In this document: positions 9 to 13,275 of the stretch, piece by piece
How positions within the stretch are numbered: position 1 is the stretch's first letter
How the letters are laid out: every line of letters begins with the position of its first letter
Assembly: GCA_964636085.1 (NCBI GenBank)
Contig: CAZWPQ010000040.1
Span: 1 to 17,324, forward strand
Length of the DNA stretch: 17,324 nt
Origin: an uncultured Nitrososphaerota archaeon
Lineage (GTDB): Archaea > Asgardarchaeota > Njordarchaeia > Njordarchaeales > Panguiarchaeaceae
Direction of reading: 5' to 3'
Translations under genes and position numbers: made by a program
Notes under the pieces: model-generated
The model's input: the letters and a program-made list of their open reading frames with translations, nothing else
Databases searched by the model: none
Told to the model about the DNA's origin: nothing

Positions 9-3000
9 TTGGAATCCCGCTTCCCACAAATCGAATACAGATACCTAACCAGAGAAGAAGCAAGAGAGCTCTTCAAATTTAAAAAGAAAACAACTGGAGT
101 AGTCCTAGGATATCCAAGTAGAGCCATGGGAACGGATCAAAAAACTCAAGATAAGCAGGCAAGATATCAATTCGAAAGTGTTATGCGTAGCCTTCTCCGC
201 TCCAATTCGACTATTACAATCGTAGCTAAGCCCGTAAGAAGAGACATAGTAATTAGTGGCTTGATGGAGCTCCGTGAGTTGGCTTCGAAGATAGAGAGCC
301 GAATTAGGGGTACGGATGGATGGAGCTTTACTATCTCGCTACCAATGCTGTATGCATATACAAATCTCCTTAACACAAGTAGGGTTTTAAGCGCCACATT
401 TCAGCAAAGAATAACGGATGCGAGAAGCATTAGTAATATTAAGCAACATACAACACTATACTCAAAAACCATGTCCCAACAGATTTCTAGAGGAACGAAT
501 ATTAGTAGCACGAGGACTTGGAGCCAATCTGTCGGGGTTGTAAAATCTAAACAAATAACAATATCACAATCCGTCACAACCAGCAAGACACTAACACAGC
601 AACACAGCTTTAGCTTAATGAAACAATACCAACAATCAGTAGGGCAAACGGTAAGTTCGTCAAGGAGTGTTGGGATTAGTAAAAGTATACAAACAAGCAT
701 GGTTCGAGGGATCAGTCTAAGCAAATCTGTGGGCATGTCCACTACATTGAGCCGACAGGTTATGTTTCAGCAAAGCGATAGTTTTGTTATATCAAGAGGA
801 GAGAGTTTCGGTACTAGTTTAACTCGAGGACAAGCACTTACCCAAAGTATAACGAGAGGCAAAACTGTTGGGCATACGGAATCATCATATTCATCGGATA
901 TGTCAGGTAAAACGGAATATGATAATTTAAGTACTAGAACTGCATCGAGCACAACAACAACGGGCTCATCACATAGTGGTGGATTCAGCTTTACCCCATT
1001 TGGGATTGGTGCAAAAGCACAGTGGAGTGATTTTAAGAGCACATCTTATACATCCAGCAATACGCATTATCATGGCTACACAACATCATCGTCCCATATT
1101 GAAGGCAGTGGAAAAAGCGATACTAGGATGGATACTTTCAGCTTTATGAGAGGAGAAACAATAAGCACCAGCTTTTCCCAGCAACACATAATTTCCCAAT
1201 CCATTTCACATGGACAAACTTTTACCCGCGGGACTTCATTTTCTCAGTCCGTTGGAAGAACTGTTTCTATTGGCAGTAGTGTATCTAGTCAATATGGAAT
1301 CGCGACGGGCTGGACACAACAGAAAGTTATATCTCAGGGTGTTAGTAGTAGTGTTTCTAGGACGTATGGTGTTGCCAAGGGCACAACAATTAGTAGGGCC
1401 GTTAGTGTTGGTGTTAGTCATACCAAGGGGATAAGCCAAACTAAGGGTATTAGCTATACTAGTGTTTCGAGTTCTGGCGGGAGTAGCGGCGTGGTCATAA
1501 TTAATGTTAATACTGATGGGATTAGTTATAGTTCTGCCGTTGGGAGTGTGTATGGTGTTAATCTAGGTAGTAGTAGGAGTGTTGGCAGTGTCCAGGGTAC
1601 AGCTTATGCCAGGGGGATTGTTCATGGGGTTACTCAGAGTATTTCTGGGGGTCTTATTCCTTCCCTGGGCTTCCACCATACTAGGGAGTGGAAGAACGTT
1701 ATGTTGGAGGGGCTCGCATATTATCTTAGGGAGTTGGAGCGGAGGTATGAGGCGATGAAGAATGTTGGTGCTTGGAAGGTTTCGGTTTTTGTTAGTGGTG
1801 ATGATGAGGGTGATGTTAGGAGTATTGGTAGTGCTTTGGAGGGTGCTCTTAGGGGGCCGGTGTCTTCTCCCAGGACTGTTCGTTTCTTTATTCCCGAAAC
1901 AATGAGCCTTAGGGATTATCTTAATAAGTGTGCTCAGGTTTGTTGTAATGTCGATATTAATGATCCTAATGGCTTTGCTTTGGAGCGTAAGTTGTTGGAT
2001 GTTGTTCTTAGCACTGTTGAGTTAACTGCGTGTAGTCATTTTCCTAGGGTTGAGATACAGGGAATAAAGATCACTGAGGATATTCCCCCGATTTTCCTTC
2101 AGAGTCCTCCAGAGTTTAGTGTTGAGCCCGATCTTAGTATTGGGCGTATTATCGATGTGCATACTGGTGAGCCATCACCGATTTGGCTCAAAATCCCCAG
2201 CACTAGGTTGTTGCATATTTTGATTGCCGGCAAGACTGGTTGTGGAAAAACCAATACGGCGTTTCATTTGGTATTGCAACTATTCAGGCTAGGCTGGGAC
2301 ATAATAGTGCTCGACTGGAAGAATACTTGGCGTCAATTGCTATATCTTCTTGGCGAGGAGGAGAGGAAGAGGCTTAGGATTTATACTTTGGCTAATCCCG
2401 ATGTTGCTCCCTTAAGGATAAACTTGCTAAGACCCCCTAGGGGAGTTGGTTGGCCCGATTGGGCCGATATTGTCTCGGAGGTATTCGCATATAGCTATAT
2501 TCCGCACCCTAGGAGCAGGAGTATTGTGCGGGAGGAGCTAGATGAGTTATACATTAAGGAGACGAAGACTGGCAGGGTGCCCACTCTCAAGGATTTGTAC
2601 GAGAGTATCGAGAGGAGAATTAGTAGGACCGACCCGCGGGTTGCTGGCCGTGGTGAGATTGAGAGTCTTAATGCTGTTCGCTCTCGCCTGTGGGAGTATA
2701 CTAATAAGCATAGTAAACTCTATATGTTCAATCAGGACTCCGTGGAAATTGAGGACTTGTTTATTGAGAGAGACACTAACCGTATTGTTGTTCTGGAGAG
2801 CGCTGGGCTATACAGTAATCATAAGACATTTATACTCTCTCTCATCGCATCGGCCATATACTCATACTACATCACTAAGACACATAGGAGAGCTCGCCCA
2901 TTACTCGTGGTATTGGAGGAGGCGAATCATCTCATCCCACCAGAAAACATAATCTACGAACAATTACACGTGTATGAGTCGATATGGGAAACGATGTTTC

Positions 3001-3353
3001 GCGAGATGCGAGAGAAAAATGTATACCTAATGGCTATCGCACAGATACCATGTATGTTGCCTAGAAGCATACAGATGAACACACCATTCAAGATCCTGAT
3101 GAATTTAGGTGTAGCAGATACCACGGCTAAGGCTGATGTTGATGTGTTCTTGGAGGCGATGGGTCTAGACCCAAGATGGGATCACAGGCATGTGAAGCGT
3201 TTCGCTGAGAGAATGCCCGTTGGATGGGGTATGGTGAGGATACCATATTGGGAGAAACAATGGGATGCTTGGCCATACTTGGTGCAGTTCCCATTAGTAT
3301 TGAGGGGCAAATATCCTAGTGATGATGAGATTAAGAGGCTTGTGGAAAAGTAG
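9..3353 (+). CDS. HerA/VirB4/FtsK-superfamily P-loop ATPase (DUF87-like) with long Ser/Thr-rich insert; probably 5'-truncated by the window edge
   Basis: Walker A HILIAGKTGCGKT (~2214-2252), IIVLDWK strand, Walker B LLVVLEEAN, then REMRE and IAQIP motifs typical of HerA/VirB4/TraG ATPases. Residues ~125-550 are an S/T/G-rich alternating repeat. Confidence 0.85.
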   Translation: MESRFPQIEYRYLTREEARELFKFKKKTTGVVLGYPSRAMGTDQKTQDKQARYQFESVMRSLLRSNSTITIVAKPVRRDIVISGLMELRELASKIESRIRGTDGWSFTISLPMLYAYTNLLNTSRVLSATFQQRITDARSISNIKQHTTLYSKTMSQQISRGTNISSTRTWSQSVGVVKSKQITISQSVTTSKTLTQQHSFSLMKQYQQSVGQTVSSSRSVGISKSIQTSMVRGISLSKSVGMSTTLSRQVMFQQSDSFVISRGESFGTSLTRGQALTQSITRGKTVGHTESSYSSDMSGKTEYDNLSTRTASSTTTTGSSHSGGFSFTPFGIGAKAQWSDFKSTSYTSSNTHYHGYTTSSSHIEGSGKSDTRMDTFSFMRGETISTSFSQQHIISQSISHGQTFTRGTSFSQSVGRTVSIGSSVSSQYGIATGWTQQKVISQGVSSSVSRTYGVAKGTTISRAVSVGVSHTKGISQTKGISYTSVSSSGGSSGVVIINVNTDGISYSSAVGSVYGVNLGSSRSVGSVQGTAYARGIVHGVTQSISGGLIPSLGFHHTREWKNVMLEGLAYYLRELERRYEAMKNVGAWKVSVFVSGDDEGDVRSIGSALEGALRGPVSSPRTVRFFIPETMSLRDYLNKCAQVCCNVDINDPNGFALERKLLDVVLSTVELTACSHFPRVEIQGIKITEDIPPIFLQSPPEFSVEPDLSIGRIIDVHTGEPSPIWLKIPSTRLLHILIAGKTGCGKTNTAFHLVLQLFRLGWDIIVLDWKNTWRQLLYLLGEEERKRLRIYTLANPDVAPLRINLLRPPRGVGWPDWADIVSEVFAYSYIPHPRSRSIVREELDELYIKETKTGRVPTLKDLYESIERRISRTDPRVAGRGEIESLNAVRSRLWEYTNKHSKLYMFNQDSVEIEDLFIERDTNRIVVLESAGLYSNHKTFILSLIASAIYSYYITKTHRRARPLLVVLEEANHLIPPENIIYEQLHVYESIWETMFREMREKNVYLMAIAQIPCMLPRSIQMNTPFKILMNLGVADTTAKADVDVFLEAMGLDPRWDHRHVKRFAERMPVGWGMVRIPYWEKQWDAWPYLVQFPLVLRGKYPSDDEIKRLVEK

Positions 3354-3375
3354 GTATACTATTTGGGGTGATATT

Positions 3376-4086
3376 ATGAATCTTGACCCCGTGGATATCG
3401 TTCTCATGACCCTCCGCATAGCTGAGTGTAGTGGTCAACCTTTTTTGTTTCTCGAGCATTTGATCAGGGAATCCAAGAGGTTAGCATCGAGTATACTTAA
3501 CTATGATATCTATAGTGCAAAAGAGTTAAGAAAATCTATCTGTCCGTCTAATTTGAAGTATTTTTATCTGTCCACAGCAAGTAAGAATCTAAAGGTTTGT
3601 CTTACAGCCGAGGGGGTATCTCGGGCTGATGAGTTATTAGGCACGATAAAGTCTCCTCAAGATCTTATCGTTCAAAGGATAGAGCCCTTTGTTGTTACAT
3701 TAAAGGTAGTTTATAATTTCGCGAAGATAGACACAATAACATATTGCAGACACTACTTCCTTGTGGATGTATGTTTTATAAGAAGAGATACATTAGAAAT
3801 TGTTGATGATCCTCGAGAAGGAGACGATGCTACAGGCATTATTAGAGTAATCAGTAAATCGCTTAGAAGAGAAAGAGTAATCGTCAATAAATTAAGCCAT
3901 AAAACATTGGCGGAAGCCCCCCGCATAGCAACACTATTGCAATTTTCACTACAATACTTCGATAAAATAGCTAAAACAAACAGAATATTAGCAGAAACAC
4001 TGGCAGGACTATGTGCGATAAAGAACCTCTTTGGTTGCAAAATACACAACAAAGAAATCATATGGAACAATAGAACCCTATTTTAG
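3376..4086 (+). CDS. Hypothetical protein (236 aa), possible N-terminal winged-helix; likely co-transcribed with the ATPase
   Basis: Long ORF. ATG 3376 follows GGGGTGAT (SD), so it is preferred over the 3319 start. 'VCLTAEG' resembles a wHTH wing (weak). Confidence 0.65.
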   Translation: MNLDPVDIVLMTLRIAECSGQPFLFLEHLIRESKRLASSILNYDIYSAKELRKSICPSNLKYFYLSTASKNLKVCLTAEGVSRADELLGTIKSPQDLIVQRIEPFVVTLKVVYNFAKIDTITYCRHYFLVDVCFIRRDTLEIVDDPREGDDATGIIRVISKSLRRERVIVNKLSHKTLAEAPRIATLLQFSLQYFDKIAKTNRILAETLAGLCAIKNLFGCKIHNKEIIWNNRTLF

Positions 4087-4093
4087 CGTAAGA

Positions 4094-4101
4094 TTTATAA
4101 G
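4094..4101 (+). promoter_or_regulatory. Archaeal TATA box TTTATAAG for the 74-aa ORF (mirror copy at 5445-5452 on the minus strand)
   Basis: Consensus-like TATA in an AT-rich tract, ~30 nt before the GC-rich leader. Confidence 0.6.
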
Positions 4102-4129
4102 TATTGTGTTGATATATTTTTATTATAGC

Positions 4130-4222
4130 TGACCGGCTGGGAGTGGGGGAGTTGTGGGGAGGGCTCCCAGTCGGTATCTGCCCGCCACGGCCTCCCCTAA
4201 CCCCAAGCTAAGTGGCGGGAGA
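4130..4222 (+). ncRNA. Putative structured 5' leader RNA, copy 1 (two hairpins with complementary loops)
   Basis: Stem ACCGGCTGGGAG/CTCCCAGTCGGT (one G-U), linker ATCTG, stem CCCGCCAC/GTGGCGGG containing the GTG start. The G-rich loop 1 is complementary to the C-rich loop 2. Confidence 0.6.
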
Positions 4223-4436
4223 ACTCGAGGAATCTGAAGTGGACGAGTTGGTGTTGGAAACAATAAAGGGTATCAACGTACTAGACCACAATGATTTTCA
4301 TAATCCTCATAACTTAAACAATTTCATACAGTTGGTCGACGCATTTAGTATACTAATTAACTTTGTGCGACAGAGTAAAATAGAAATAGCATTAAGAATG
4401 AACGATGTTTTAATAGTGATAAGACCAGAGAACTAA
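4212..4436 (+). CDS. Small hypothetical protein (74 aa, acidic N-terminus)
   Basis: ORF starts at the GTG inside the repeated leader, exactly as the TFB-like gene does, and is followed by a T-tract. Confidence 0.6.
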   Translation: MAGELEESEVDELVLETIKGINVLDHNDFHNPHNLNNFIQLVDAFSILINFVRQSKIEIALRMNDVLIVIRPEN

Positions 4437-4445
4437 CAACACTAA

Positions 4446-4488
4446 TTTTTGATTTTTCTTTTTTCTTTTTCTGGAAAAAAGAAAAAGA
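4446..4488. terminator. Bidirectional oligo-T terminator between convergent genes
   Basis: T/C tract on + followed by GAAAAAAGAAAAAGA (a T tract on -), lying between the two stop codons. Confidence 0.7.
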
Positions 4489-5334
4489 TTATTGAGACAT
4501 GAGTTTTCTTGCATATCGTAAAATTGTGAATCTTGATACCCCTGATGCCTCTTCTATTATCCTTGCTGATATTCTTGATGACAAATGTTTACTTGCTAGA
4601 TACACAAGTACAGCGGCTGCTACCTTTGGCGATAGTCTACTGATATTTTTGTGTATCTTGTTGATTAGTAACAAATGCATTTGGTCAAGGATCTTTTCTT
4701 TTTTCTCTGGATTAATTGGTATCATTGTAATTATTTGTTTAGCATAGGTCAATATGTTTTCATTTCTATACCCACTATATCTATTTACAATGCTCTTTAG
4801 TTTAATAAACTTCCCCCATGTAACCTTGTATTTTGTTTTTCTTCCTATCTCGCGGAGATATCTAATTGGATTCATTGGTAGGATTGTATTAAGGTATTCG
4901 TATAGGAAAAACACCACAACATCTGTAAGTAATATTTTCTCTTTTCGTACTATGGGAAATATTTCATTAACATTCTTGAAAATAGAGTCTATATCAATAG
5001 GTATGTCAGTGCCAAGAACATTTTTTATAATATTGTACACAATTTTCTTAGTTCGGTGTTTCCAAAGTCGCTCTAAACTTCCTGCAGAGTTTTTGAATGT
5101 TTCTTTGTATGTTTCTGTGGGTGGACTGTTACGTTCCAATGTGAATTTCAAAAATCTCTTTGCCTTTTTCTTCGAAAGTATGTAGGTCTTGCCATTATAA
5201 TATATCGCGAAACCACGGGAGATGGCTTGAATAAAGCCCCATTTTGGTATTATAATTTTTTTCTCTTTATCAAGCACAAAAGCCTTTGTTACTTTCTTAA
5301 CAAATTCAGCGAGTTCGTCAAAATCTCCCGCCAC
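4489..5334 (-). CDS. Divergent TFB (TFIIB)-like cyclin-fold/HTH protein without N-terminal Zn ribbon
   Basis: C-terminus RLSPKVAAAVLVYLASKHLSSRISARIIEEASGVSRFTILRYARKL matches the TFB cyclin-repeat pattern (GRSPxxxAAAxxYxAS...TxxEVAxxxGVSxxTI). The protein has no cysteines. Confidence 0.7.
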   Translation of the reverse strand: MAGDFDELAEFVKKVTKAFVLDKEKKIIIPKWGFIQAISRGFAIYYNGKTYILSKKKAKRFLKFTLERNSPPTETYKETFKNSAGSLERLWKHRTKKIVYNIIKNVLGTDIPIDIDSIFKNVNEIFPIVRKEKILLTDVVVFFLYEYLNTILPMNPIRYLREIGRKTKYKVTWGKFIKLKSIVNRYSGYRNENILTYAKQIITMIPINPEKKEKILDQMHLLLINKIHKNISRLSPKVAAAVLVYLASKHLSSRISARIIEEASGVSRFTILRYARKLMSQ

Positions 5335-5471
5335 TTAGCTTGGGGTTAGGGGAGGCCGTGGCGGGCAGATACCGACTGGGAGCCCTCCCCACAACTCCCC
5401 CACTCCCAGCCGGTCAGCTATAATAAAAATATATCAACACAATACTTATAAATCTTACGCTAAAATAGGGT
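5324..5471 (-). repeat. Right arm of the perfect 148-bp inverted repeat (promoter plus leader copy 2 for the TFB-like gene)
   Basis: Reverse complement of 4075-4222. Confidence 0.97.
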
Positions 5472-5544
5472 CCTGTTGAGCCGAGATAGCTTATTCCTAG
5501 AACACTGTGAGATCATAATTTTTAAAAAGATTTTATTATAATTA

Positions 5545-5628
5545 TATTATTGGTGACCCCCTCTCTCAGAGGGGGGTATCTGCCCGAGTTCCCAGAGGGG
5601 GAGAGTAGATAGATCTGGGGCTCGGGAT
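5545..5628 (+). ncRNA. Diverged third copy of the structured leader, upstream of tnpB
   Basis: TATTATnGnTGACC, hairpin, GGTATCTGCCCG, hairpin, CGGGA are conserved while stem interiors differ but still pair. TATA-like TTTTTAAAAA at 5519-5528. Confidence 0.6.
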
Positions 5629-7053
5629 TTGACCGCCCACGTCTCCCCCAAACGCGTGGGCGGTAAAGGAGCACAAAAGCGGGCACGAAGCTATAGTATT
5701 TATATCGATACTGATGAGCCTACTGGTAAAGTTTTGTGGGACCTAGTAACGAGATATATGTGGCTCCTCCAATACACCATAAACTATATTAGTGCTAGGG
5801 TACGGTGGAGCGAGGAGCCTGTGGATAGCTACTACACTATTGTTGTCACTCCAGAACTCAGAACACAGTACAAGGAATACAAAAGCTATGAGGAGAAGGT
5901 AGAGAGCACGAGGAAGTGCTTGGAGATTCAGGGCAAGAGGTACGAGGAGTTCAGGCACTGGGACAAGAAGTATAGGCGATGGCTCGCCGGTTTTAGGGTG
6001 TACTATACTGCAAAACGCAGAACCCCAGAGCTCCCAGAATACAAGGAGATCTATGATGAGCTAAGGCCAAAACTACTCGAAATGTGGGGCGAATACGCAG
6101 CACACTATGTTGACTCAATAATACAGTATGCCTATAATACCGTGATGAAGTCATGGAAAGAACTCTATGAGGAAGGCATGGCGCGAAAGAAGAAGCCCGT
6201 GATGAGGAGACGCACCATTTACCTCAAAAATACGTTGTTTCGGGTGAGAGATGGAGAGCTAATAATAACGCTGATACCAAGGAAGCGTTATCTCAAGGTA
6301 CCAATAGATGGCCAGTGGTTCCTAGAACGCGTAGACGGATGGAGACTCGGTGCCGTGTTGATCAAGGAGCTTGAGCCTAGGGGGAGGTATCGAGTAATCC
6401 TCCAGTACACAAAGGAAAGGGAAAAGTTTGAACCAGAAAGTTATCTGTCAATAGACCTGAACATGGACACTATTGATTTATTGCTCTACGCACCAGGCAC
6501 AACGAAGCTATGGATAACCATAGACTGGTCGGAGCTAATTCGATGGATTAGGAAACACCACGATGAGAGATCCAAAATACAGAGTAGACTGGCCCATGCA
6601 AGGAGGGATAATCTACGGGGCGCTCTAGAGAGGTTAAGTATAAAATACCGAAACTATACCAAGGACATCGTGAACAAGACCGCCAAATACATTTTATCAC
6701 TGGCCGAGGCATATAGCGCAGTAATAATTGTCGAAGACCTAAAGAAAAATCAAATGTACAGGAATAAGGAATGGAACAAAGAGCTCCAAATGCGTCTGTG
6801 GAAGCGACTAATCCAAGAACTGAAGAAACGATGGTTCGTCAGGGAGGTAGACCCATACTGCACAACAAGAACATGTAGCAACTGCGGCTCCAAGAAAACC
6901 ATAGTCCAAGGCCTAACAGTAAAGTGTACAAAGTGCGGCATCACCATCAACCGACAGTTAAACGCATGCATAAACATAATGAAGAAAGCAACAAACATAA
7001 CCATAACAAACCAGATAAAGAGAGAAAAAATCAGCATCAAGGATATATTGTAG
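5629..7053 (+). CDS. tnpB: TnpB/Cas12f-like RNA-guided protein (IS200/IS605 OrfB family), RuvC-III Asp->Gln, possibly nuclease-dead
   Basis: RuvC-I SIDLN (D276), RuvC-II IVEDL (E369), Zn finger CSNC..CTKC, RuvC-III NRQLNACINI (Q443 where DRDxNA has D). No tnpA is adjacent. Confidence 0.88.
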   Translation: MTAHVSPKRVGGKGAQKRARSYSIYIDTDEPTGKVLWDLVTRYMWLLQYTINYISARVRWSEEPVDSYYTIVVTPELRTQYKEYKSYEEKVESTRKCLEIQGKRYEEFRHWDKKYRRWLAGFRVYYTAKRRTPELPEYKEIYDELRPKLLEMWGEYAAHYVDSIIQYAYNTVMKSWKELYEEGMARKKKPVMRRRTIYLKNTLFRVRDGELIITLIPRKRYLKVPIDGQWFLERVDGWRLGAVLIKELEPRGRYRVILQYTKEREKFEPESYLSIDLNMDTIDLLLYAPGTTKLWITIDWSELIRWIRKHHDERSKIQSRLAHARRDNLRGALERLSIKYRNYTKDIVNKTAKYILSLAEAYSAVIIVEDLKKNQMYRNKEWNKELQMRLWKRLIQELKKRWFVREVDPYCTTRTCSNCGSKKTIVQGLTVKCTKCGITINRQLNACINIMKKATNITITNQIKREKISIKDIL

Positions 7054-7055
7054 CC

Positions 7056-7367
7056 CCTGGGCCGGCTGTGTTTTTCACCCGGCCCCAATAAAGGTCTCAA
7101 CCCGAAAAGGCCGGCCCGGGGGCCTCTGGGTACTTGATACAGCGACCAACCCTGGCACCGTTACACATGGCTCCCGGGCCGGCCTAGGTGGCTGGGGTCC
7201 CGCCTGGGCCCGATGTGCGATGCCGTGCTCCCAATGAACCCAGAGGGGGACAAGGCTGAGGGCCGAAGCCGTGTGTGGGCAGTGGACAATTTTAGCATTA
7301 ATCATGATCATCGGTGTTATGTTTGTATATGTTTGTCCACAAATGTCCACATACGGCAGACCCCGAC
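7056..7367 (+). ncRNA. Putative omegaRNA/guide-RNA scaffold of the TnpB-like protein
   Basis: GC-rich block right after the stop codon, with stems 7058-7064/7079-7085, 7109-7124/7169-7184, 7186-7191/7200-7205 and 7268-7289/7333-7357 (several G-U pairs). Possible pseudoknot 7194-7199/7359-7364. Confidence 0.7.
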
Positions 7368-7381
7368 TTGTGATGTTAGCC

Positions 7382-7773
7382 CCAGTGGTTTTCTTTACTC
7401 TTAAAATATGCTATCGAGGAAATCGAGAAGCATCGTAACGAAATTTGTAGAAGAGTCGGCTTAGATGAAGAAAGTTTCAATTACATTCTATCTAGCATTA
7501 TTCTTCCTGAACTTAGACTCGTGGAAATAACCAACCAACATATTATTGAGAAAGCAAAACAGATATCCATGAGGTTTGATCCAGATGACTATCCATTCAT
7601 AGCACTTGCACTAGAATTAGACGTTGCAATCTGGACAAATGATAAAGCAATTATCAAGTGTAGTTTGACAACCAATCAGTTTTTAGCAGTTGATACCCAA
7701 TCCCTAGAATATCTACTAAAATGAAAAAAATATAGATCATATCAAAAACGAGCTAAAGAAAAAGTATCTCTAA
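7382..7773 (+). pseudogene. PIN-domain (VapC-like) nuclease pseudogene, N-terminus missing
   Basis: YAIEEIEKH...DPDDYPFIALALELDVAIWTNDK is a PIN motif. There is no N-terminal DTN motif, an apparent frameshift near 7405, a premature TGA at 7722-7724 and a frameshifted tail ending in TAA at 7773. Confidence 0.75.
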
Positions 7774-8019
7774 TCTACACACAAAGTAAAATGTCAGATA
7801 AAAGATTATTAGTCCAAGACTAAAATGACACTATACTAAAAATTACCATAAGCATATTTAAATTGGAGGGCTTTTAGAGACACCACAAACAGGAGATAAT
7901 TATAGTCATACCTGTAGCATGCATGGATTGAACGATATGTCCAGTGTTTTACCAACCGCTACCCTAGATATTCTAGCCTGACATCTTTTTAGGAATGGAT
8001 TTCCTTGCGCATAATATTT

Positions 8020-8132
8020 TATGGAAATGATATTGTCGTGCTATATGAACATACCTCTCTTTCGGAATCATATAGTATGACATTCACAGTATAGGTACCT
8101 TTTTCGATGCCTCTTGCAATATCATTTCCATA
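8020..8132. repeat. Perfect 16-bp inverted repeat, 81-bp spacer (possible MITE)
   Basis: TATGGAAATGATATTG (8020-8035) / CAATATCATTTCCATA (8117-8132). Confidence 0.6.
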
Positions 8133-8156
8133 TATATCTCGCTTTTTTCTCATAGC

Positions 8157-8336
8157 TCATATACCATGCCGAATCCATCTACTATCTGGCTTTTTGACCA
8201 GAATGTAGTAGTATGTGTTATTATCAAAGTAACACTCATCTGGACTTCTAACACATCTATCTATGTCAAATTGATCTACTTCTGGATGCCGAAGAAAAAT
8301 ATGACGTGCGTAGTGTAGTGTCCTGCAATAAATCAC
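8157..8336 (-). pseudogene. 59-codon ORF or fragment, weakly resembling RelE/BECR-fold nuclease toxins
   Basis: GTG after GAAGGAGAGGAA; contains RHIFLRHPEV...IDRCVRSPD. Not listed in the ORF track. Confidence 0.3.
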
Positions 8337-8432
8337 TTCCTCTCCTTCAGTTCTATGGTTCTCAGCTTCGACAAGAACATGCTTGCCCTTAAGTATACTT
8401 CTTTCTTTTCTTGAATCACAATCTTGTGTGCG

Positions 8433-8891
8433 CTATTTGCTTTCCCTCTGTTTCTTCTGCAAGTTTTCCAAAATTTCATCTGGTGTGGCGACCTTAAGTC
8501 CATTCTCTACACCCTTTATCCTCTGGAAATCCTGCAGGTTTCTCGTCACTATCGTTAAGTTATGGGTAAGTGCTATTGACGCTATGAATACATCTCGAAG
8601 CCCTACTGGTTGCCCAATTTTATGAAGACAAGCGTCTATTCGTGCTGCCCTCTCTGCAGGATCCTCGCCAAAGGGAAGTACGACTATCTGTCTCCTCAAA
8701 CTATCAATATCCTGGATCTCTTTTGCTAACCCAACTCTTAGAGGGCCATAGTAGAGTTCATATAGCGTGATTGATGTTATTGCTATCTCATCCTTAAGCA
8801 TTAGAACAAGCTTCGCTGCTGGACTATCCCTATTCTTCAGAAATTCTATCACAACATCTGTATCTAGGCAGTACTTGACCAGTTCTTCCAC
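8433..8891 (-). CDS. vapC: VapC PIN-domain toxin
   Basis: YCLDTDVVIEFL, ITLYELYYG, DVFIASIAL and IVTRNLQDF motifs; overlaps the upstream antitoxin. Confidence 0.93.
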   Translation of the reverse strand: MEELVKYCLDTDVVIEFLKNRDSPAAKLVLMLKDEIAITSITLYELYYGPLRVGLAKEIQDIDSLRRQIVVLPFGEDPAERAARIDACLHKIGQPVGLRDVFIASIALTHNLTIVTRNLQDFQRIKGVENGLKVATPDEILENLQKKQRESK

Positions 8892-9109
8892 CTTTCCCTA
8901 ATCATGCCAAGAAGTACACTCTCGTCAACATCGGTCCACGAGCCAGCAAGCTCCTCAATCCTCTTTATCTTTCTAACGATTATCTTCTCACCACTAATGG
9001 ACACATCCACAAGATCCCCTTCCCTAATCCCGACAACCCTACTTATATCTGCTGGTATAGTTATCTGTCTATTCCTAGTAACCTTTACAATAACCACCAA
9101 AGTCACCAT
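8864..9109 (-). CDS. vapB: AbrB/MazE/SpoVT-family antitoxin
   Basis: KVTRNRQITIPADI...GIREGDLV...KIIVRK is the swapped-hairpin motif; directly upstream of vapC. Confidence 0.9.
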   Translation of the reverse strand: MVTLVVIVKVTRNRQITIPADISRVVGIREGDLVDVSISGEKIIVRKIKRIEELAGSWTDVDESVLLGMIRERWKNWSSTA

Positions 9110-10215: not shown

Positions 10216-10291
10216 TCAGGCCGCTGGGTATGCTTTTTAATTGAAAATATCAATATATATTGGTAAACATGTTTTGCCTGGTGCATTAGGG

Positions 10292-11269
10292 ATGCGGCCA
10301 GGCCGATTAGCAGTATTTCTCATAATCATCATAGCCATAGGCCTCCTAGCAGAACACTACTACCCCCAAATGCAGGGGAGAGAAAATTGGAACAGCCAAC
10401 ATGTCGAAAAAGAATATGGGGGACACCACACACACCAAAGACAGATCCAAAGCATAGGCATCGAAAAACCAAAAACGCCGGAGGGCATAGAAGAAATACT
10501 GGAAACCAAGCAAAGACACATAGCAGAGGACGAGGACACAGCAAAAATAGAGCCCCAGGCAACGAGGGCACCGTCATCATGGTACATGCTTATAGACAAG
10601 CCGGGATACTACGAGCTAACCGAGGACATAATAGACTGCACGTATGAGTGTGGAATATACATAAACGCGAGTAACGTTGTGCTCGACGGAAAGGGACACA
10701 TTATAGACGGAGTATATAGCGGGAGTGGCAAATATGGAATATACGTAGACCACGCAACAAACATAACAATAAGGAACACAAAAATACTATAATGGTTTTG
10801 GTATGGGATATGGTTCTATTACTCGGACAACAACATGGTATATAACAACACAATACAGAACAACGACGGGACTGGGATATCCTTCGGTTGCTCGGGCAAC
10901 AACACGGTATATGGCAACACAATACAGAACAACGGTGGTTATGGGATATTCTTCAATTACTCGGGCAACAACACTATATACCTGAACAACTTCATAGACA
11001 ACGCATACCAATACTACACCGCGGGAGGCACGGGAAATAGGTTCTATTCCCCACAGCCAACAACATACATGTATAAGGGGAAAACATACACAAACTACAC
11101 GGGAAACTACTGGAGCGACTACAACGGGACAGACAAAAACGATGACGGAATAGGAGACACAGCATATCGCTCAGACCCATACCCGCTAATAAGGATAGTA
11201 AAGATAGAGAAAGGACAGGTAATAATAACAGCACCACCAAAAATAACAATAACAAACCCACAGAACGCC
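10292..11269 (+). pseudogene. Secreted right-handed beta-helix (NosD/pectin-lyase-like) surface protein, with in-frame stop and IS truncation
   Basis: Signal peptide; PGYYELTEDI, NVVLDGKGH, repeated GI..NNT.YGNTIQNN and GNYWSDY.G.D.NDDGIGD motifs. ORFs 10241-10792 and 10835- share a frame, separated by TAA 10790-10792. Cut at 11269 by the IS end. Confidence 0.85.
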
Positions 11270-13275
11270 GAGACTGTCTATGGTTTTTATTTGCTGGTTC
11301 TAGCCAGAAGACCAACCCCACAAAACTCCGACAAAAAACATGGGCAATCCAACCGCTTGGAAAACTCACTAGGAACAGCATGACGGCCAAAGACCTCTCT
11401 CATAAGAGAGGCAATAACATTCACTTCTAGAGGCTCAAGCTTAGCCTCATAACCAACACCCTTACCACCAAGGAATTTCGTCAAAGACAAACCATAGTGC
11501 TCACGAACATAAGCGTCGAGCATGGAGCCGATTATGAGAGTATTCCAAATAACGGCCCTAACAAGAATCTCCACCATCATCGTATGGCATAGTTGTGACG
11601 CCAAGACATTATCATATGGCACCAAGTAAGAGAAGATCTCCTCAACAATGCCACGGACACGTCTAAGATCCCCTATATGGCGCCTCTGCAGCCACCTCAA
11701 TACCATAAGCGTTTCATCGTCGGATACATCGCCCCTCGGGCATGCCACTGGTACAGTATGTTGTTCCAGAAGATCCCTAGAGAAAGATGTGGCCCAGTAT
11801 TCTTTGTCGCCAAGAGCGAACGCGACAAAGAAATCATATCTGAAGTCAAACTCGATGTCCTCCACAGACCATCCAAAGTCTATGTCCAAGATGACCCTAC
11901 TATCAATATCCACCAATCCATGAAACTTTATACCGGCTCTGTTATATGGATAGAACATACTCTTCGTTGTCGCTACAGTTGAGTCTATCGCCATCAGCAA
12001 GACCTCCCTCGTTTTCCTCCCATCTACGACAATTCTCGCTAGGAAATTCACGAGTTGTTGGAGAGTCGAGATGTCAATCCTATACACATCCCTCTGAATT
12101 GTCGCATGATCTGGAGCATTTCTGCACAACGTGAATGGCTGTGGGGATAGCATGAGGGACTCCAGAAACCTATAGCTAGTTGTCTTCCTGAACATCCTCG
12201 CCGCCATAGATATCCTTGTTATTACTTTTGGCGGGATGTTGTATCTAGATGCAAACATTGCTAGTAGTGTATCTAGCAATGGAAAAACCCATCTTGATGC
12301 CTCCTCGGAGGACTTCCTTGGTATCGAGGATCTATCGGTCTTGAAGCCAGATTCAAAATAAAATATCTCCCCGCATATCCCGCATTGTAGCTTTGGTTTG
12401 CCATAACTGTTAACGACTACTATCTCTTCGCTACCACATACGGGGCATGAGACAAAATAGGTATATCCTTGTCTAAGCAACGTGATTATGGACTGCGTGT
12501 GGCCACAATCAGCACACTTCCTTCTCAGTATCACTATTCTTCCAGAGTTAACTAGATACTTCTCAAAAAGCCTTAACTTCCCCCCACAGTAGATGCATCG
12601 GGTGAGTCTGAGACCAAGCACCTCCTCAATATTCACGGGCTCTATGCGGCGTTTCTTGCGCTTCTTATGTGGAAGCTGTCCATTAGGATCTACGTATATC
12701 ATAGCTCTACACTTTGGGCATCCTAGTATGATCATTCTCACGCCGTCGCTCTTCCTAGTGTATGTTTTATGATGCCACATCCACCTTTTGCACCCTTTGC
12801 AATATGCCTCAACCTCGCCGCACTTCTTGCATTTAAATACCTTGATTCGGGTTTTGTTTTTCCTTATCTCTGTGACATCTTCGAGGTCTTCATGCACCCC
12901 AATACACTTCTCATTGGTTATAACTTCGGAGGGTGCTAGCGATATGGATTTTCCACAGTTTGGGCATGTAAACCTCTCTACGTGCGTCCCGTCTTTCCTC
13001 GTGTAGTTGTCGTTTCTCCATTTCCTAGTTCTGCATTTCAGACATATTACTTCTAGGATTTTCCCACATTTGGCGCATACGCGGACAAGCACCCCTTTTC
13101 CGTCTCGCCGCTTGATCTTCCTCTCGACTATACCTTCTTTCGGATGTCCGCACTCGTCCATGTATACCATAGAAAACTGGCGTTAAAAGCGTGCTGAAGG
13201 CACATGGTTTTTGTCGGAGTTTTGTGGAGTGAGCCTTCAGGCTAGAACCAGCAAATAAAAACCATAGACAGTCTC
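11270..13275 (-). mobile_element. Insertion sequence (IS5/IS1182-like, DDE), 2006 bp, 76-bp terminal inverted repeats
   Basis: TIRs 11270-11345 and 13200-13275 (first 36 bp perfect, 69/76 overall) begin GAGACTGT and enclose a transposase. No target-site duplication. Confidence 0.88.
11287..13170 (-). CDS. DDE transposase (IS4/IS5 superfamily) with an N-terminal array of Zn ribbons
   Basis: PDHATIQR, MAIDST, KFHGLVD, GDKEY and RGIVEEIF motifs; ten CxxC pairs in the first ~270 aa. Confidence 0.85.
   Translation of the reverse strand: MVYMDECGHPKEGIVERKIKRRDGKGVLVRVCAKCGKILEVICLKCRTRKWRNDNYTRKDGTHVERFTCPNCGKSISLAPSEVITNEKCIGVHEDLEDVTEIRKNKTRIKVFKCKKCGEVEAYCKGCKRWMWHHKTYTRKSDGVRMIILGCPKCRAMIYVDPNGQLPHKKRKKRRIEPVNIEEVLGLRLTRCIYCGGKLRLFEKYLVNSGRIVILRRKCADCGHTQSIITLLRQGYTYFVSCPVCGSEEIVVVNSYGKPKLQCGICGEIFYFESGFKTDRSSIPRKSSEEASRWVFPLLDTLLAMFASRYNIPPKVITRISMAARMFRKTTSYRFLESLMLSPQPFTLCRNAPDHATIQRDVYRIDISTLQQLVNFLARIVVDGRKTREVLLMAIDSTVATTKSMFYPYNRAGIKFHGLVDIDSRVILDIDFGWSVEDIEFDFRYDFFVAFALGDKEYWATSFSRDLLEQHTVPVACPRGDVSDDETLMVLRWLQRRHIGDLRRVRGIVEEIFSYLVPYDNVLASQLCHTMMVEILVRAVIWNTLIIGSMLDAYVREHYGLSLTKFLGGKGVGYEAKLEPLEVNVIASLMREVFGRHAVPSEFSKRLDCPCFLSEFCGVGLLARTSK

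Follow-up and report, generated by a model that had tools for sequence, protein, structure and literature searches.

The DNA analyzed here, referred to as the window, is a stretch of 17,324 nucleotides (nt) that makes up the entire contig C40 of host genome G000 (2.4-Mb assembly, 83%-complete). It encodes a TnpB protein followed by a structured RNA, a 281-aa paralog of the transcription factor TFB on open reading frame (ORF) 281, and a small protein on ORF74. This locus is best read as the right-hand part of a cargo-carrying mobile element derived from IS607. We consider it fairly probable that such an element, with an Asp-to-Gln (D→Q) TnpB typical of its clade, carries regulator genes and reshuffles them under one leader RNA that would serve as a translational lock. 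One leader RNA precedes TnpB and most of the cargo genes. A pool of small regulators (TFB-core, ORF74 family, winged-helix, and helix-turn-helix (HTH) proteins) occurs upstream of such TnpBs in combinations that vary and is also found downstream of paired HerA-type ATPase and ORF255 genes. An earlier reading made from the letters alone, called the sequence-only reading below, had proposed that a domesticated, nuclease-dead TnpB and a dedicated TFB form an RNA-guided transcription system; the TnpB-like gene, the TFB-like gene, and the 74-aa ORF on which it was built were all confirmed. The host genome was present in hydrothermal-vent metagenome runs. Members of the ORF281 family bear the NCBI name Njordarchaeia, and on the basis of these names the host is probably a genus of this class, for which 14 genomes were available.

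TnpB and the right end of the element

The tnpB reading frame spans positions 5629–7053 on the plus strand. Translation from GTG 5656 yields a protein of 465 aa, and by analogy with the leader position in all homologs this codon is probably the true start. The RuvC residues are D276, E369, and Q443. Q443 aligned to the catalytic RuvC-III Asp of ISDra2 TnpB, in agreement with the sequence-only reading; D276 and E369 are invariant, and Q443 is the single change in the DED triad. The C4 zinc finger is intact and invariant in close homologs. TnpB belongs to the archaeal IS607 RQLN clade. The RuvC-III Gln was invariant in 10/10 close homologs, was also present in distant homologs adjoining an intact TnpA, and occurred in a homolog from the Acidianus tailed spindle virus. 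The D→Q archaeal clade is widespread, and a scan of named genomes yielded no close TnpB. Close homologs at loci L002 and L005 lie downstream of an IS607 TnpA, often frameshifted, and IS607 TnpA and left-end repeats were found upstream of the relatives L002, L005, and L070. An intact TnpA is encoded elsewhere in the host genome, on contig C35 (in trans). Because the Gln is invariant in close homologs and present beside intact TnpA, it is no sign of local domestication; judged from the sequence comparison, the change is ancestral in a large archaeal IS607 clade.

The 311 nt after the tnpB stop codon (7054–7364, plus strand) comprise an omega-RNA scaffold and the IS607 right end. They were conserved in seven loci with a covarying consensus fold. 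The structured downstream RNA of the sequence-only reading was borne out by this alignment, which alone was informative; folding of the single sequence was not better than that of shuffles (z −0.59). A comparison of the omega-RNA with Rfam 15 gave no match near the gathering threshold. The right end stops sharply at CAGACCCC, and the flanks beyond differ at all seven loci. It has GTCCACA repeats, and its 3′ end pairs with a GGGGTC located near 7193. Additional right ends were found in the host genome and in genome G012. The locus thus has the right end with short repeats and the overlapping omega-RNA of an IS607 element, and the differing flanks and several right ends per genome show insertion at many sites. 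The sequence-only reading had regarded a DNA-cleaving TnpB within a multicopy mobile insertion sequence as incompatible with its proposal; an intact, multicopy right end with variable flanks was observed. Together with the ancestral Gln and the unconserved guides, this speaks against a domesticated dead TnpB.

The predicted guide is the right flank (7365–7380, plus strand), whose sequence differs at every locus. Five left ends begin after GCC; by analogy with IS607, where the target-adjacent motif (TAM) matches the target site (PMC10690162), this suggests a TAM of approximately GCC. No clear guide target, and none above chance, was found in the host assembly. A 12-nt match in contig C68 was discarded, as it falls within a coding region and is not accompanied by the predicted TAM. 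The guide of locus L007 was searched in G012 and gave matches with one or two mismatches only (26 versus 15 in the control). We regard it as improbable that a dead TnpB with short guides works by itself as a TldR-like repressor, its neighbors being incidental. The D→Q change affects a residue at which substitution inactivates model enzymes (PMC10705468), the TnpA of close relatives is often frameshifted, and one GCC plus 9-nt seed match lies between genes (C5:18865). However, the substitution is single and shared by mobile elements; other changes conserved at RuvC-III have been described, several of them in archaea, and were read as rearranged, probably active sites (PMC10691335); and the seed match, expected approximately 0.14 times by chance from base composition, was rejected as a target at chance level. 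In the favored reading of an IS607-derived element, TnpB and its omega-RNA would act on the element's own empty site, consisting of the predicted TAM of approximately GCC and the right flank. TnpB may cut with a rearranged site or only bind, and its role would be transposon maintenance.

Two further observations were made at right ends. At L039 (positions 1586–1639; G012 contig C151), the last 18–19 nt of the right end are tandemly duplicated with an 8–9-nt spacer. The duplication resembles a minimal repeat-spacer unit, and an identical joint was present in run X2. A contig of run X1 covering window positions 7315–8500 joins the right flank to a different right-end variant, as in L076. By this joint, another family member can occupy the right-flank site of the window.

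A leader RNA common to tnpB, ORF74, and ORF281

The leader consists of an AT-rich promoter, hairpin 1 (about 10–19 bp), a short linker, and hairpin 2 (8–24 bp), whose 3′ arm contained the start codon in 18/18 copies. At tnpB, promoter and leader occupy 5519–5665 on the plus strand and contain the AT-rich box, a small hairpin 0, hairpin 1 (5583–5626), and hairpin 2, which buries GTG 5656. This leader is a diverged copy of the ORF74/ORF281 leader. Searches of the 2.4-Mb genome with a structure descriptor and with a covariance model both located the leader at exactly ORF74, ORF281, and tnpB, confirming the claim of the sequence-only reading that the three genes have a common promoter and leader that is not due to chance. 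The sole descriptor match outside the window (contig C20) overlaps coding sequence and was unsupported by the covariance model. In three genomes of one genus the covariance model found 15 copies, 7 of them outside the building set, and in the 146 other genomes searched it gave one weak match. The genes behind the 15 leaders encode TnpB (5), the ORF74 family (4), the TFB core (2), a winged-helix protein (1), and a 90-aa ORF (1); the remaining 2/15 copies are at sites without a long ORF. No match near the gathering threshold was obtained with Rfam 15, and no report of this leader was found in the literature. The leader is an undescribed archaeal RNA with strong covariation and a new part of the locus.

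In the tnpB leader, loop GGGGGAGA is complementary to loop TCTCCCCC. In short-form leaders GGGGGAG pairs with CTCCCCC, and in L004 GGGGGAA pairs with TTCCCCC. In the long forms (L005, L017, and L043) the loop sequences are unrelated to these: GCCCCTAGG pairs with CCTAGGGGC, and GGTGA pairs with TCACC/T. Own-loop duplexes were better than 95% of shuffles in 15/18 leaders. For the long forms, the own-loop duplex had −28 to −36 kcal/mol and was equaled by 0/500 shuffles and by no cross pair. Cross-type duplexes averaged −9 to −11 kcal/mol compared with −27 kcal/mol within type. Related leader copies are non-independent, and the contrast between long and short forms is the real evidence for loop pairing. 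RNAalifold gave hairpin 2 only, with the alignment out of register in hairpin 1, and loop pairing was tested by script. Counts of G-U versus A-C (22 versus 12) modestly favor the sense strand. A G-quadruplex reading of the leader was rejected, as the long variants keep the pairing without G-tracts. Tandem arrays of three to four small hairpins with conserved flanks precede the long-form tnpB leader in L005 (5744–5870), L039 (3444–3552), and L043 (2–66); in the window there is one hairpin of this kind, at approximately 5557–5579.

ORF74 (4212–4436, plus strand) and ORF281 (4489–5334, minus strand) are convergent, and tnpB follows on the plus strand. ORF74 encodes a small acidic helix/beta-hairpin protein of a family of five, each behind a leader. 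No fold was assigned to it (model with a predicted local distance difference test (pLDDT) score of 69, best Z 3.9, Atlas matches unnamed). Both genes are bracketed by a 148-bp perfect inverted repeat, each arm of which holds a TATA-like box, the two-hairpin leader, and the first codons of its gene. In the left arm (4075–4222, plus strand), the end of ORF255 is followed by the TATA-like box (4094–4101), hairpin 1 (4132–4175), and hairpin 2 (4181–4219), whose 3′ arm contains the ORF74 start codon. The right arm (5324–5471, minus strand) contains the promoter and leader of ORF281. Because they are arms of one perfect repeat, the leader copies of ORF74 and ORF281 are not independent. The final bases of ORF255 are repeated at the beginning of the right arm, which was therefore copied from the left arm. 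At L048, a HerA gene (67% identity), an ORF255 homolog (50%), a leader, and an ORF281 homolog follow each other in one direction with no ORF74 behind. The ORF255 copy and this arrangement point to an inversion or conversion at the leaders.

In L001–L003 the ORF74/ORF281 cassette is flipped relative to the window and has its own inverted repeat of 81–88% identity. The inverted repeat of the window interrupts the contigs of three DNA runs, which thus give no orientation information. A single joint at the repeat in these contigs was dismissed as a short hairpin-arm match only, and the lower depth over the cassette in run X1 was not read as copy number. The perfect 148-bp arms of the window, the 81–88% arms of L001, and the opposite orientations would suit a programmed invertible switch, but either way each gene has an identical promoter and leader, and flipping would change little; moreover, no invertase is present in the window and the orientation may be an assembly choice across the long perfect repeat, which makes such a switch very improbable.

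In the favored cargo-carrying element, recombination between leaders would swap and invert ORFs, giving rise to the 148-bp perfect repeat and the flipped cassette. The basis for proposing such recombination is the similarity of promoter, leader, and first codons (M-A-G-E/D). The leader would be transcribed from a canonical TATA promoter approximately 26 nt upstream and fold into two hairpins with paired loops. From the position of the start codon we infer that the leader functions as a translational lock, in which loop pairing would shut off the start codon and hold potentially harmful proteins low until the lock opens.

The TFB-core paralog and its genomic context

The ORF281 family profile matched TFIIB/TFB cores (E 6e-4 to 1e-3) and found full-length TFBs across the phylum. 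In the model of ORF281 (pLDDT 83.5), residues 82–281 matched Brf1, TFB, and cyclins and form, within about these limits, two cyclin repeats ending in an HTH. The Z score was 11.1 for Brf1 and 10.2 for Pyrococcus TFB over 166–178 residues, with a root mean square deviation (rmsd) of 10.7–12.0, the repeats being hinged; a single repeat matched T. brucei TFIIB with an rmsd of 2.7. Foldseek gave no match under E 0.001, all top rows being cyclin/TFIIB folds, and Pfam and NCBIfam gave nothing above cut-off for ORF281 alone. Profile, model, and structure matches thus agree with the TFB-like protein with a cyclin fold that had been predicted. The sequence-only reading missed that this protein is without the N-terminal zinc ribbon; its sequence contains no cysteine at all. 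In place of the ribbon, residues 1–70 are modeled as an alpha/beta domain of another kind. This domain weakly resembles Med17-C or MotA-C (Z 6–7; a lead only), with Z 6.4 and an rmsd of 2.3 over 68 aligned residues for the C-domain of the T4 MotA activator. In TFIIB the zinc ribbon is the part that recruits RNA polymerase, and in TFB3 it is indispensable (PMC6101594).

A chromosomal TFB-core paralog without zinc ribbon was present in 12/14 genomes of the class and precedes a FlaI/VirB11-type ATPase gene in the genomes inspected. This class-wide gene (C34:20653–21423 of the host genome, L016, and L010–L014, directly upstream of the ATPase gene) has apparently not been described so far. ORF281 belongs to a faster-moving offshoot of it that is found in extra copies. 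The host genome also encodes two zinc-ribbon TFBs, at C6:76362 and on C16; both are short, with about 270 aa counted from the ribbon, and the usual B-reader motif seems to be missing from them. Without the ribbon, ORF281 most likely is a competitor of the host TFB or a partner-dependent regulator, TFB3 in reverse (PMC6101594). Its cyclin core would bind TBP and TFB recognition element (BRE) DNA. It would be a protein-directed regulator of element or host promoters that is co-regulated with TnpB and not aimed by the guide.

The trio of genes recurs in L001–L003 with 40% (ORF281), 40% (ORF74), and 56% (TnpB) identity. These loci carry HTH164 and TnpA upstream, in the order TnpA, HTH164, TFB-core, ORF76, TnpB in L001/L002. 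L040 and L007 have the order ORF74-like, winged helix, HTH324, TnpB. Upstream of other close TnpBs lie an ORF255-like gene (L039), TnpA (L005), and an IS1595-like fragment (L004). Variable leader-headed regulator genes stand directly downstream of HerA and ORF255 in three loci; the order in L068 is HerA, ORF255-like, HTH164, winged helix, ORF74-like. Close ORF281 homologs are also found ahead of a small-GTPase operon (L037, L038, and L049), with contigs ending nearby. A TFB core adjoins TnpB in 2/6 informative arrangements. The two TFB-linked TnpBs were rejected as a clade in the approximately unbiased test (p-AU 7e-7), a result that mosaic genes could blur. In its own tree ORF281 groups with L048/L037 and not with L001, and the leader of the window is of the L048 type. 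The recurring synteny expected by the sequence-only reading thus held for a second lineage (40–56% identity) and not for the TFB core in most arrangements, and the trees were incongruent. A dedicated TFB was not supported, as most close TnpBs are without a TFB neighbor and ORF281 homologs also stand behind HerA/ORF255 or ahead of the GTPase operon. As a separate observation, the leader-headed TFB-core genes of L037, L038, and L049 lead an operon with an Arf-like small GTPase, of which the host genome has five copies (including those on C35, C12, C5, and C4).

Two elements may have met at this locus, although we think this unlikely: ORF281, as a mirror image of TFB3, which controls Ced/Ups genes, would regulate a HerA/ORF255 DNA-transfer element, the TnpB element would have inserted beside it, and the leader would have spread by gene conversion. 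Consistent with this are the co-directional L048 arrangement, the L048-type leader of the window, and the position of the chromosomal paralog before the ATPase gene in several genomes. However, ORF255 homologs lie between IS607 left-end/TnpA remnants and TnpB in L039 and L070, indicating that the units mix freely, and in many loci TnpB and cargo are preceded by leaders that have diverged, indicating that the sharing is old.

Co-folding of TnpB with ORF281 gave a value of 0.44 compared with 0.01 for the best of three controls, with a partner pLDDT of at least 75. Of 80 solved pairs, 58 reached the mark, only 7 of them at a value of 0.60 or under; of 110 mismatched pairs, 2 reached it, both at 0.60 or under. 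The runs disagreed with each other (contact agreement at least 0%). For the binding of TnpB to the TFB-like protein that the sequence-only reading expected, the co-fold model lends weak support; it raises a low prior slightly and reveals no interface.

Several points weigh against an IS607-derived cargo element. No TnpA is present in the window, as the sequence-only reading had stated, and a search of the window for an IS607 left end found none. tnpB is single-copy in the host genome. The same trio exists in two divergent lineages, the TFB-core loci L037, L038, and L048 reach contig edges so that a neighboring TnpB is possible, and the TnpB-ORF281 co-fold passed, if weakly. All leader-headed genes encode TnpB or regulator-like proteins, which would also fit a real circuit. 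An archaeal counterpart of dCas12f-sigmaE along the lines of the sequence-only reading would be a nuclease-dead TnpB ribonucleoprotein (RNP) that binds guide-matched DNA and places the TFB-core paralog there, either starting or blocking transcription, while ORF74 would serve as adaptor. The confinement of the leader to three genes in the host genome, the D→Q change, and the weak lead of the MotA-like N-terminal domain agree with it, as do the trio in two lineages and the co-fold. Against it stand the TFB core beside TnpB in 2/6 arrangements and the rejected clade, the unconserved guides without targets above chance, the retained transposon end, the missing zinc ribbon of ORF281, and the retained zinc finger of TnpB, unlike sigma-linked TnpB (PMC10691335). 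We judge this positioning to be rather improbable. Equally doubtful is an early-stage archaeal RNA-guided regulator, in which a D→Q TnpB in an IS607 shell would bind a captured TFB core and bring it to guide-specified DNA, and a kissing-hairpin leader would switch all parts.

Contig C40 starts within the HerA gene region. The HerA-type ATPase gene (9–3353, plus strand) heads a unit with ORF255 (3319–4086, plus strand), a pairing also present in L048 and L068. The protein has a long Ser/Gly/Thr-rich repeat region, its top match was the NCBIfam serine-rich protein NF033849 (under cut-off), and its ATPase part weakly resembles CedD. Just past the right end lie a PIN-domain fragment (7521–7724) and a MazE/AbrB-PIN toxin-antitoxin pair (8433–9109); PIN-type pairs also flank related TnpBs in L004, L005, and L028. 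A secreted beta-helix-like gene with 69-nt repeats is split over two frames (10241–10792 and 10835–11383) and cut off at 11270 by an insertion sequence (11270–13275). The latter has 89-nt imperfect terminal inverted repeats and a CxxC-rich, 627-aa transposase-like ORF that matched no family above cut-off, and several copies or ends of it are found elsewhere in the host genome.

Comparison with known systems

On a cautious reading, the new aspects are an undescribed covarying archaeal leader RNA predicted to gate TnpB and regulators, a class-wide TFB paralog without zinc ribbon that mobile DNA has captured, and the shuffling of transcription regulators by an IS607/TnpB element via look-alike leaders. 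Shuffling by leaders is a plausible route for TnpB to acquire partners. No report of a TnpB paired with a TFB was found in the literature. If the RNP does position the TFB core, RNA guidance would act on the archaeal/eukaryote-type initiation machinery, for the first time as far as the literature searched shows. IS10/IS50 hairpins bury the translation start in a stem, and kissing-loop riboswitch leaders have loop-loop tertiary pairing; the leader described here shares these features but heads several unrelated genes and is without an Rfam match.

The locus resembles IS607 TnpB/omega-RNA elements, such as CboTnpB (PMC10690162) and including the cargo-bearing Ser-branch (PMC10691335), in its right-end omega-RNA, terminal pairing, use of the flank as guide, serine-recombinase TnpA, here in relatives, and occasional HTH cargo. 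It differs from them in the RuvC-III Gln, the lost or broken TnpA, the shared structured leader, a cargo that is a swappable regulator set including the TFB core, and a predicted core CC with a TAM of approximately GCC instead of TGGG.

TldRs are likewise TnpB-derived, with an altered RuvC and no adjacent TnpA, and are defined by two or more RuvC DED changes and the absence of transposon ends (PMC10705468). Here Q443 alone differs, the right end is kept, the guides are unconserved with variable flanks rather than fixed on a genomic target, and there is no fixed partner gene. The dCas12f/sigmaE systems (PMC13472631, PMC12259091) and sigma-TnpB (PMC10691335) also have an altered Cas12f/TnpB-type protein beside an initiation-factor homolog. 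In the sigma-linked type the zinc finger and RuvC-III are lost and replaced by a partner-binding domain (PMC10691335), whereas here the invariant C4 finger and the RuvC-III region are kept. Obligate synteny and co-divergence are absent (2/6 loci, clade rejected), and the partner is without the polymerase-binding zinc ribbon, its binding being weakly predicted by co-fold. TFB3 is a partial TFB that acts as a specific regulator and is linked to DNA-transfer/pilus ATPase genes (PMC6101594), in likeness to the ORF281 family. TFB3 keeps the zinc ribbon and is without the HTH; the ORF281 family is the opposite, with both cyclin repeats and the HTH and no ribbon.

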